From IMG/VR virus record IMGVR_UViG_2585428015_000008: a DNA stretch of 29,939 nucleotides, one strand, 5' to 3'. Shown here piece by piece: positions 18,001 through 21,000 of the stretch (position 1 is the first letter of the stretch; every line of letters starts with the position of its first letter). Made by a program: the position numbers. The DNA is from a virus (Duplodnaviria > Heunggongvirae > Uroviricota > Caudoviricetes).

Positions 18001-21000
18001 GACCGTCGCTGACGGTGTCCAATCTGTTCGGTCTGGTCACCGGGATGGCGGAAGACCTGCAGAGTCTGGTGGGGGCCACGGTGGTCCGCCGCCGGGTGTA
18101 TGCCCGTTTTCTGGATGCGGTGAATTTCGTTGCGGGCAATCCGGAGGCGGACCCGGAGCAGGAGCTGAGTGACCGCTGGGTGGTGGAGCAGATGTCGCAG
18201 CTGACAGCCATGACGGCCTCGTTTGTGCTGGCTACACCGACCGAGACGGATGGGGCGCTGTTTCCCGGTCGCATCATGCTGGCGAACACCTGTATGTGGG
18301 ATTACCGGGGAGATGAATGCGGGTATAACGGTCCTGCGGTGGCGGATGAGTTCGACAACCCCACCACGGATATCCGTAAGGACAGATGCAGCAAGTGCAT
18401 GCGCGGGTGTGAACTGCGCAGGAATGTCGGCAATTTTGGCGGTTTCCTTTCCATTAATAAACTTTCGCAGTAAATCCCGGTTTATGACACAGACTGAATC
18501 AGCGATTCTGGCGCATGCCCGGCGGTGTGCGCCTGCGGAGTCGTGCGGCTTCGTGATAAGCACGTCGGAGGGGGAGTGGTATATCCCTTGTGTGAATATT
18601 TCTGCAGAGCCGGAGGCGTATTTTCGTATCGCACCGGAAGACTGGCTGCGGGCAGAGATGCAGGGGGAGATTGTGGCACTGGTCCACAGTCATCCCGGTG
18701 GGCTGCCCTGGCTGAGCGAGGCTGACCGGCGGCTGCAGATAAAAAGCGCACTGCCCTGGTGGCTGGTCTGCCGGGGTGACATTCACAAATTCCGCTGTGT
18801 GCCACATCTGACAGGACGGCGCTTTGAGCACGGGGTGACGGACTGTTACACGCTGTTCCGGGATGCTTATCATCTGGCGGGGACTGAAATGCCGGATTTT
18901 CATCGCGAGGATGACTGGTGGCGCAACGGTCAGAACCTTTACCTGGACAATATGGCGGTCACCGGCTTTTACCGGGTGCCCCTGTCCTCTGCACAGGCGG
19001 GCGATATTCTGCTGTGCTGCTTTGGTGCTTCGGTACCGAACCATGCCGCCATTTACTGCGGCAACGGTGAGCTGCTTCACCATCTGCCTGAACAACTGAG
19101 TAAACGGGAGAGGTATTCCGAAAAATGGCAACGACGAACGCATTCTGTCTGGCGTCACCGCCACTGGCACGCATCTGCCTTCACGGGGATTTACAACGAT
19201 TTGGCCGCCGCCTCAGCCTGTATGTGAACACGGCAGCGGAAGCCATCCGGGCGCTGTCGTTACAGGTGCCGGGCTTTCGCCGTCAGATGAACGAAGGCTG
19301 GTACCAGATACGTATTGCCGGTTATGACACGGCACCGGAGGCGGTGTACGCCCGTCTTCACGAACAGCTGGGTGAGGGAACGGTCATCCATATTGTGCCG
19401 CGACTGGCCGGGGCCGGAAAGGGTGGACTGCAGATTGTGCTGGGGGCGGCAGCCATCGTGGGCTCTTTCTTCACTGCCGGGGCATCAATGGCGTTATGGG
19501 GTTCAGCCCTGGCAGCCGGTGGTTTTTCTGCCACCACGATGCTGTTTTCACTTGGAGCCAGCATGATTCTGGGCGGTGTGGCCCAGATGCTGGCCCCGAA
19601 GGCAAAAACACCGGATTACCGCGCAACGGATAACGGCAGACAGAACACGTACTTTTCCTCGCTGGATAACATGATTGCCCAGGGGAACCCGATGCCGGTG
19701 CCTTACGGGGAAATGCTGGTTGGCTCCCGCCGTATATCCCAGGACATCAGCACCCGTGATGAAGGCGGGGGCGGAACGGTCGTGGTTATCGGGCGACAGG
19801 GATAAAACATAAAAAAATCCCGCAGTGATCGCGGAGCTGCGGGGACAGACAAATGAAGATCAATGTTAAGGAGTTGTTTTTGTTACTCGGGCAAAAAAAC
19901 ACTAACGCAGCGAAATTATAAGCGCCACAGTCAGTGTGTGAAAATGTGAAGATATTCAGAATTTTTATGCCATTACCGGTTTTAACCAACAGGATTATCG
20001 GTGGGCATGAAAGAAAACCCCGGTATCTGCTGATACCGGGGTTTCTCTTTAGCATGGCAGAAATGTGTTTCATGCTTTTCGGGCGAAGGATATCCGACTT
20101 CTGTACGGAATGGCAAGTGGCGGTTAATTTATTCAGGGGAAGGCTGTATGGGAAAAGGTGGCGGTAAGGCACACACGCCTCGTGAGGCGAAGGATAATCT
20201 CAAATCCACGCAGATGATGAGCGTGATTGATGCGATTGGTGAGGGACCGATAGAAGGTCCGGTGAAGGGACTGCAGAGTATTCTGGTGAACAAAACCCCA
20301 CTGACGGACACGGACGGCAATCCCGTGATACACGGTGTGACGGCGGTCTGGCGCGCCGGGGAGCAGGAGCAGACACCACCGGAAGGCTTTGAGTCCTCCG
20401 GAGCTGAAACCGGACTGGGCGTGGAAGTGACGAAGGCAAAACCGGTGACGCGCACCATTACGTCCGCGAACATTGACCGCCTGCGGGTTACCTTCGGGGT
20501 GCAGTCACTGGTGGAGACCACCTCAAAGGGTGACCGTAACCCGGCATCCGTCCGCCTGCTGATTCAGTTACAGCGTAACGGTAACTGGGTGACAGAAAAG
20601 GACGTCACCATTAACGGCAAGACCACCTCACAGTTCCTGGCCTCGGTGATTCTGGATAATCTGCCTCCCCGGCCCTTTAACATCCGGATGGTCAGGGAGA
20701 CGGCGGACAGCACCACGGACCAGCTGCAGAATAAGACGCTGTGGTCGTCATACACCGAAATCATCGATGTGAAACAGTGCTACCCGAACACGGCCATTGT
20801 GGGGCTGCAGGTGGATGCGGAGCAGTTCGGCGGCCAGCAGATGACGGTGAACTACCATATCCGCGGTCGCATCATCCAGGTGCCGTCAAACTATGACCCG
20901 GAAAAACGCACGTATAGTGGTATCTGGGACGGCAGTCTGAAACCGGCATACAGCAACAACCCGGCCTGGTGTCTGTGGGACATGCTGACTCACCCGCGCT

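Follow-up and report, generated by a model that had tools for sequence, protein, structure and literature searches.

Among the small RNAs (sRNAs) of Escherichia coli prophages, the closest described relatives of the element studied here are EcOnc22, EcOnc23 and EcOnc24. Tree et al. 2014 (PMC4104026) listed in their Table S2 peaks for these RNAs, obtained by crosslinking and analysis of cDNA (CRAC) with Hfq, in Sp15, Sp14 and Sp11 of strain Sakai. The RNAs lie on the strand opposite to the tail genes, give a northern signal of about 85 nt and were described as 'destabilised' in a delta-hfq background; a 2021 review (PMC7873438) carries them as 'target unknown'. Here we analyse the spacer between the tail genes I and J in a stretch of 29,939 nt of Caudoviricetes DNA from an E. 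coli prophage (IMG/VR record IMGVR_UViG_2585428015_000008), called the window in the following, and show the homology, anatomy and conservation of a cassette in this spacer which, judged by its sequence, encodes a new allele of this sRNA family, detected experimentally in E. coli O157 already in 2014. What is added to the published data is the family link itself, an offset in the published table coordinates, the anatomy and the spread of the cassette, the rejection of an encoded peptide and of a GcvB sponge, and two leads, a CRP-like box and an A-R-N tract.

Several other systems resemble the cassette in part. AgvB and AsxR (EcOnc01 and EcOnc02) are, like the window RNA, prophage-borne and short, end in an intrinsic terminator and consist of a constant and a variable part; both are bound by Hfq, and their ARN motif lies in the variable part (PMC4104026). 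However, their locus is the PR' moron site downstream of Q and there is no sequence similarity to the window. The 3' domain of about 42 nt which AgvB and AsxR share (GUAUCUCAUGC.AUUGCCCGAACCCA.UCGGGC) has no match in the window within 3 mismatches, and an identity with AgvB was therefore rejected on account of locus, sequence and 3' domain. HnrS (EcOnc10/11/12) is a multicopy prophage sRNA which represses hha (PMC13502914). With the I-J cassette it has in common the multiple copies, the location in the late region of prophages and the intrinsic terminator; HnrS is Hfq-associated and its copies rise with the number of prophages. It differs in being a 66-nt RNA with identical copies largely confined to strains positive for the enterocyte effacement locus (LEE), whereas the I-J cassette is allelic and also common in sequence type 131 (ST131), CFT073 and other non-LEE strains. 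As HnrS corresponds to EcOnc10-12 at another locus, this identity was rejected, too. Finally, the cassette is similar to the morons of lambdoid late operons, which are autonomous units of promoter, gene and terminator: it consists of AT-rich extra DNA between genes that are neighbours in lambda, has a promoter and a terminator of its own and, as predicted for the window, is expressed from the prophage. What sets it apart from usual morons is that it carries a non-coding RNA and that its transcription runs against the late operon.

The I-J spacer holds a predicted sRNA gene of the EcOnc22/23/24 family

Gene I ends at 19805 and gene J starts at 20148, and the two genes were identified by their Pfam profiles (Lambda_tail_I for I, GpJ domains for J). 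This leaves a spacer of 342 bp (19806-20147) with a GC content of 0.40-0.44, compared to 0.58-0.63 in the flanks, and thus confirms the AT-rich insert of about 340 bp which an earlier reading of the bare sequence (the original prediction) had placed here. The accompanying statement that lambda has essentially no spacer at this position is only approximately right; the I-J spacer of lambda (NC_001416 15445-15504) measures 60 bp and itself contains a hairpin (ACCGCC-TGCG-GGCGGT) followed by a T-run (TTTTGTCATTT), whose position matches that of the right-hand hairpins in the prophage spacers.

A near-consensus promoter on the minus strand and a terminator about 100 nt further on had been predicted for the spacer, and both were recovered. 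The promoter (TTCACA-16-TATAAT, 19942..19915) agrees with the consensus at 11 of 12 positions; in the 1.4 kb scanned three promoter-like sites were seen against 0.8 expected. The terminator, with a 7-bp stem and a U7 tract, was found by scanning as well as by folding, the consensus scan calling it at 19835..19819 followed by T7. From the start belonging to TATAAT (G19908, 7 nt after the hexamer) the predicted RNA has a length of 98 nt.

All three Sakai peaks, EcOnc22, EcOnc23 and EcOnc24, map to I-J spacers. In the Sp15 spacer, the published northern probe 'EcOnc22/23/24' corresponds to tail-sense sequence immediately inside the left hairpin; therefore the RNA it detected is tail-antisense. 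The hybrid reads assigned to EcOnc22/23/24 in RNase E crosslinking, ligation and sequencing of hybrids (CLASH; PMC5286369 supplement) contain GCCTGAAAAATAACTCCATAACGTTAATCTTCATCGTTCTCTCCCGCAGC, a sequence which matches the tail-antisense strand beside the stop codon of I in Sp15. The window RNA from promoter to terminator is 75.5% identical to EcOnc22. A covariance model, constructed from 21 alleles, including EcOnc22, none of which reaches 85% identity to the window RNA, matches the window end to end (19908..19811, model positions 1-95 of 95) with 77.1 bits and an E value of 8e-14. In BLAST searches the window aligns with the spacers of Shiga toxin (Stx) phages at 74-82% identity over about 170 nt (E 1e-17 to 1e-38). 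The location agrees as well: the window RNA is antisense in the I-J spacer and its 3' end abuts the stop codon of I (19803-19805), as in Sakai. Because of the mapping of probe and CLASH reads, the identity to EcOnc22 and the match of the covariance model, we assign the candidate of about 100 nt to EcOnc22/23/24. The suggestion of an 'sRNA moron' in the original prediction is thereby substantiated, since the promoter-terminator unit is homologous to Hfq-bound RNAs.

The coordinates of the EcOnc RNAs in Table S2 are about 135-140 nt lower than those in NC_002695.2, as judged from AgvB as an anchor and from a CLASH read. Taken at face value they would place the Hfq peak beside J, in contradiction to the original prediction; the offset rules this out.

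Window and Sakai alleles share the position after the stop codon of I, the tail-antisense orientation, the terminator with U7, the ARN tract, the UUAAUCUUC core, the position of the -10 hexamer and the box. The two differ at about one quarter of the positions, most of them within the presumed pairing region, and 6 nt are inserted in the window RNA. The promoter is much better in the window (TTCACA-16-TATAAT) than in EcOnc22/23/24 (TCCGGC-16-AATAAT), and the window cassette is joined to a right-hand module of 176 bp different from that of the Sakai alleles.

The covariance model has one further match in the window, at 16473-16530 (minus strand; 11.7 bits, E 2.1). It consists of a hairpin plus U6 antisense inside the tape-measure gene, after UCUUCA, and is probably due to chance.

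Anatomy and conservation of the cassette

The alleles of the cassette were collected from IMG/VR with a pattern describing the terminator alone, which gave 120 loci; together with the E. coli loci this resulted in 67 unique sequences, among them 57 unique left modules bearing the box and 48 unique RNAs. The stem and the U-tract of the terminator were fixed by the search pattern, and the terminator loop ranges from 4 to 16 nt. The features of the spacer are compiled in Table 1.

Table 1. Features of the I-J spacer in the window; positions refer to the whole stretch of 29,939 nt.
Feature	Position	Strand	Basis and remarks
Predicted sRNA gene, EcOnc22/23/24 allele	19811..19908	-	covariance model and 75.5% identity to EcOnc22
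Intrinsic terminator	19811..19843	-	stem CCCGCAG/CUGCGGG (19837-19843/19819-19825), loop 11 nt, U7 19817-19811
Weakly structured body, candidate pairing region	19844..19872	-	CUCCUUAACAUUGAUCUUCAUUUGUCUGU; conservation profile, alignments
22-aa open reading frame	19853-19921	+	MKINVKELFLLLGQKNTNAAKL; judged not a gene
(A-R-N)5 tract	19873..19887	-	AGUAACAAAAACAAC; candidate Hfq distal-face binding motif
Alternative minimal -10, TAGTGT	19899..19904	-	TAnnnT in all alleles inspected; sequence and alignments
-10 hexamer, TATAAT	19915..19920	-	consensus scan
-35 hexamer, TTCACA	19937..19942	-	16-bp spacer; good in the window allele, poorly conserved in the family
CRP-like box	19942..19963	.	AAATGTGA-AGATAT-TCAGAATT; core TGTGA-N6-TCAGA 19945-19960
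Variable right-hand module, 176 bp	19972..20147	.	in I-J spacers only, at least 99% identity
Strong hairpin, candidate two-way terminator/insulator	20006..20056	.	perfect 13-nt arms 20015-20027/20032-20044
Weak promoter-like site, TTGCCA-18-TATCCT (9/12)	20087..20116	-	consensus scan only

In the 57 left modules, the hexamer at a constant distance from the box reads TATAAT (28 alleles), AATAAT (17), TATCAT (5), CATAAT (2) or another sequence (5). In the -35 region TTCACA is found in 33 of them, TCCGGC in 8 and TTCTGT in 5, besides others. The upstream block AAATGTGA-N6-TCAGAA-TTTTAT is conserved in the family, and so are the first six transcribed bases, GCGUUA. In addition to the start at G19908, a second one may exist: G19892 lies 7 nt past the minimal TAnnnT hexamer and corresponds by homology to the position where all CLASH reads from Sakai begin (GCCUG), which would shorten the RNA to 82 nt. 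We regard G19892 as a candidate 5' end deduced from this homology rather than as a mapped start site; the 5' end of the CLASH reads may instead be a product of processing or trimming.

An uninterrupted (A-R-N) tract of at least three repeats is located at nt 21-36 in 44 of the 48 unique RNAs; its sequence varies, and the number of repeats in the family ranges from (A-R-N)3 to (A-R-N)7. None of 200 shuffles reaches the five repeats of the window. Between this tract and the terminator lies the body, in which a conserved core, UUAAUCUUC, is surrounded by variable flanks. Upstream of the terminator, the folding of the RNA does not surpass that of shuffled sequences (mean z +0.38), and an RNAalifold consensus retains only the terminator; the unstructured body therefore fits the expectation for an accessible pairing region. 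A conserved stem-loop at the 5' end, formed by a U-run and an A-run, was considered and rejected because the minimum free energy folds are inconsistent and, with the same mean z, weaker than those of shuffles. One lineage does show a compensatory-looking change (UUCAU/AUGAA) in this putative stem.

The -10 hexamer, the ARN tract, the U7 terminator and the half-sites of the box persist in alleles which are only 67-79% identical. The original prediction had named a region devoid of conservation, explained as a degenerate remnant, as an outcome that would refute it; the features are conserved across 48-57 alleles. Conservation over dozens of alleles, together with the published experiments on homologues, shows beyond the scan statistics alone that the features of the spacer are non-random.

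Some I-J spacers contain tandem arrays of two to three different cassettes, namely the loci L016 (701, 921, 1374), L060 (4419, 4644), L065 and L070 (323, 542, 995). Each tandem unit has its own terminator, -10 hexamer and CRP-like box. In a subgroup formed by the loci L020, L072, L075 and L096 (12 copies among the IMG/VR loci) the RNA body and the terminator are kept while -10, -35 and box are replaced by unrelated sequence. These could be natural promoter-less variants or could be driven by another promoter.

Distribution

Of 5426 complete E. coli genomes, 1612 contain the full spacer of 342 bp, in every case without annotation. A more sensitive search revealed that only its left half (19806-19971, about 165 bp) is conserved, down to about 70% identity, whereas the right half is either near-identical or replaced. 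This left half is a mobile cassette; 1813 of the 5426 genomes carry it, a single genome having it at as many as 11 sites, and it sometimes occurs as tandem copies. The carriers include enterohaemorrhagic E. coli (EHEC) of the serotypes O157, O26 and O145 as well as ST131 and CFT073.

Outside of E. coli the strict pattern is found only in E. albertii and on two short contigs of unrelated assemblies, one of Parendozoicomonas haliclonae (L141, 460 bp) and one of Streptomyces flavalbus (L143, 3.4 kb). Assembly contamination is the simplest explanation for these two contigs.

In Sakai itself, Sp9 (L146, NC_002695.2 1794520-1794775; also L008) carries, behind a truncated tail gene, a further allele whose terminator has a short loop, and an L-like open reading frame (ORF) is fused there to the end of I. 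Sakai therefore has more members of the family than the three named EcOnc RNAs.

Proposed function

We think it rather likely that the spacer unit is an Hfq-dependent base-pairing sRNA moron which is expressed from the prophage and possibly controlled by cyclic AMP (cAMP)-CRP. Expression, Hfq binding and Hfq-dependent stability were demonstrated for the 75%-identical Sakai alleles only (PMC4104026); from these we infer the expression of the window allele, its action in trans and the mode of Hfq binding. The 165 bp or so next to I would form a self-contained non-coding 'moron', inserted right after the stop codon of I, whose sigma-70 promoter would fire against the direction of the late operon. 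The RNA of about 80-100 nt would end at the intrinsic terminator, the U7 tail of which adjoins the end of gene I, and would be bound and stabilised by Hfq like EcOnc22/23/24 of Sakai. A terminator hairpin plus U tail is the standard module that contacts Hfq at its proximal face. In the window RNA, the 3' hairpin with its U-tail would thus be expected there and the (A-R-N)n tract on the distal face, for which binding of ARN repeats has been argued in the case of AgvB and AsxR (PMC4104026).

Base pairing would take place via the weakly structured 30 nt or so between the ARN tract and the terminator. As this stretch differs among alleles, different prophages probably have different targets. In the CLASH hybrids that EcOnc22/23 form with yjbJ, the stretch used is CCAUAACGUU, immediately 3' of the ARN tract (PMC5286369 supplement), and the window allele differs at the homologous stretch.

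The candidate box just upstream of the promoter would probably put the sRNA under the control of cAMP-CRP. CRP recognises the motif N3-TGTGA-N6-TCACA-N3, centred at -61.5 in class I and at -41.5 in class II promoters (PMC10199772). Class I sites may also lie further upstream if they keep the helical phase. With TGTGA-AGATAT-TCAGA the core of the box matches nine of ten positions of TGTGA-N6-TCACA. No allele with a box deviates in either half-site, but the N6 between them occurs in six different forms. Relative to the alternative start at 19892 the centre of the box is at -60.5, one base off class I.

There are a number of points that weigh against this proposal, some of which concern the RNA and others the box. 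Because the search pattern required the stem, the conservation of the terminator stem can not be counted as evidence. Rfam release 15, to which the original prediction had pointed as a check, contains no family that reaches its gathering threshold in the spacer. The CLASH tables do not contain the sequence of the window allele, although carriage of this allele by Sakai is not established, and for the Sakai alleles CLASH gave only a few, weak partners (three reads for yjbJ, one each for the others). Also the 5' end is ambiguous: in Sp15 the RNA would have 90 nt from the TATAAT-type start and 75 nt from the CLASH 5' end, compared to about 85 nt in the northern blot. As for the box, the window contains one CRP-like match with at most one mismatch to TGTGAN6TCACA, where 0.93 are expected by chance in 30 kb, and the weight of the box therefore rests on its conservation. 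Its second half-site has one mismatch (TCAGA instead of TCACA), and its centre (19952.5) is at -44.5 from the TATAAT start at 19908, which fits neither CRP class. Moreover, the box is situated at a mosaic boundary, exactly where left and right modules are exchanged, and its conservation could serve a recombination joint rather than regulation.

The sub-threshold Rfam matches in the spacer (SSRC34_2, Ref84 and STnc310) align to the hairpins only and were discarded as terminator look-alikes.

A more far-reaching idea, which we put forward as a doubtful possibility, is that of a plug-in module. A constant chassis, made up of CRP box, -10 hexamer, ARN tract, UUAAUCUUC core and U7 terminator, would be combined with an allele-specific pairing region, so that prophages would wire different host or phage RNAs into the cAMP-CRP response to carbon starvation. 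The copy number of up to 11 per genome and the tandem arrays of two to three alleles would then broaden the regulon.

The cassette is absent from Rfam and from genome annotation, and yet it is present in about one third of the complete E. coli genomes, often in several copies. Because it is not annotated, transcriptome and genome-wide association studies take it for an empty spacer. The link to EcOnc22/23/24 supplies a name, published evidence of expression and an anatomy with start site, Hfq motifs, candidate seed and candidate CRP site. Should the connection to CRP and the allele-specific targets prove true, the cassette would be a further means by which prophages adjust host physiology; otherwise it is one more orphan prophage sRNA.

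Alternative explanations

Instead of acting in trans, the RNA might regulate its own late operon as a cis-antisense RNA, either by pairing with the I-J part of the late transcript or by a collision of its transcription with rightward polymerases. The transcript paired could be that of the same prophage or of co-resident or superinfecting relatives, and the effect would be to tune J and the genes downstream or to silence leaky tail genes in lysogens. By construction the gene has full complementarity to the I-J part of the late mRNA, the cassette is always found at the I-J junction and nowhere else, and multi-prophage genomes harbour up to 11 related copies. However, the RNA ends 6 nt past the stop codon of I and starts 240 nt before the start of J, covering neither a ribosome-binding site nor coding sequence. 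Hfq binding and Hfq-dependent stability, as known from the homologues, are typical of trans-acting sRNAs, and lambda and other phages manage without the cassette. The alleles also vary most in the body, a variation for which cis pairing has no need. Since no ribosome-binding site or coding sequence is covered and the homologues depend on Hfq, we regard a role in cis as unlikely. An action as anti-sRNA, or sponge, after the manner of AgvB and AsxR would be different again: the ARN tract would occupy the mRNA face of Hfq and the RNA would sequester an sRNA of the core genome. The conserved ARN tract is in agreement with what was reported for AgvB and AsxR, and a C/A-rich run in the window RNA (AACAAAAACAAC) resembles GcvB target sites. 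When the duplex with GcvB R1 was calculated, though, the window RNA stayed at the level of shuffles (z -0.96), whereas AgvB, whose seed mimics an mRNA target of GcvB, reached z -2.91 in the same test, and a GcvB sponge acting via this run was therefore rejected. As the 3' domain of AgvB and AsxR is missing from the window, and the CLASH partners listed for EcOnc22-24 are mRNAs and rRNA and not sRNAs, a sponge seems quite improbable to us.

To the same low degree we believe in a decaying remnant or recombination linker, whose conserved blocks would mark mosaic joints and whose transcription would be functionless. The position of the box exactly where left and right modules exchange would be explained in this way, as would the loss of promoter and box in the subgroup which keeps only body and terminator, and the small number of CLASH partners. 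It is difficult to reconcile with the persistence of -10, ARN tract, U7 terminator and half-sites in diverged alleles, with the retention of the cassette in one third of the E. coli genomes and its tandem duplicates, and with the presence of the homologues among the reproducible Hfq-bound RNAs. A type I toxin-antitoxin-like pair, in which a 22-aa peptide would be the toxin and the antisense RNA its repressor, had been considered in the original prediction. The ORF at 19853-19921 is indeed present on the plus strand and overlapped by the antisense RNA, as the small ORFs of hok/sok, ldr/rdl and ibs/sib are by theirs; it is preceded by a purine-rich stretch, and its first nine codons look somewhat conserved between alleles. 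In contrast to these loci the ORF is not conserved. It starts with ATG in 30 of the 57 unique alleles, the other 27 having ACG, AAG or ACA. Depending on how long a homopolymeric A-run is, both its frame and its stop move; in the window the frame has a TAA where several alleles continue. Furthermore, the peptide is polar and not hydrophobic, neither this ORF nor any other spacer ORF on both strands matches a Pfam or PHROG family, and a consensus scan of 19300-20700 detected no promoter-like site on the plus strand from which it could be expressed. The missing start codon in 27 of 57 alleles led us to reject this reading, to which we give next to no credence, and the 22-aa frame is judged not to be a real gene. 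The Hfq-dependent base-pairing sRNA thus remains the explanation that we prefer.

Two long open frames run through the spacer, one of 77 aa (19934-20167, plus strand) in frame with the 22-aa ORF and one of 128 aa (19786-20172, minus strand). In the annotation of phage ASU11 an in-frame plus-strand ORF of 66/77 aa is listed as a hypothetical protein. The coding potential of the 22-aa, the 66/77-aa and the 128-aa ORFs was rejected because they are without conservation and without family match.

The right-hand module and other features of the window

The part of the spacer proximal to J appears as a separate, exchangeable module. All copies of it are at least 99% identical and comparison is therefore uninformative for this module, which leaves the weak promoter-like site listed in Table 1 without comparative support. 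In most other alleles its place is taken by about 70 bp of unrelated sequence, in which another hairpin precedes a plus-strand T-run.

A bidirectional terminator had been predicted at 20018-20050. The hairpin is real, with its arms slightly shifted from these coordinates, but it belongs to the variable module and not to the cassette, and is the positional counterpart of the lambda hairpin upstream of J. Its stem extends beyond the perfect arms because the flanking A- and T-runs pair. The folding energy is -29.9 kcal/mol on the plus strand (z -5.7) and -28.7 kcal/mol on the minus strand (z -7.0), and a pyrimidine/U-rich run follows the hairpin on both strands; a simple terminator scan did not flag it. 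A function as two-way terminator or insulator is plausible. The hairpin would probably insulate the cassette and J from stray transcription in lysogens, while Q-modified polymerase would read through it in lytic growth. In our reading, an intercistronic hairpin upstream of J is ancestral, and the cassette was inserted between it and the stop codon of I. A convergent plus-strand sRNA ending at the right-hand hairpin was considered as well and dropped, as no plus-strand promoter was found.

Further downstream, at 23689-26564, the window contains a shortened lom-like gene of 152 aa, which covers positions 1-131 of 199 of the Ail_Lom profile. It is followed by an IS21-type pair consisting of a 513-aa rve/Mu-transposase-C protein and a 249-aa IstB; apparently an insertion sequence has entered the region downstream of J and interrupted it. 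A match to the Rfam family IS102 RNA (RF00124) at 28244-28480 on the minus strand scores 68.1 bits, above the gathering score, and adjoins an autotransporter ORF (AIDA/ESPR) at 26618-28300 on the same strand.

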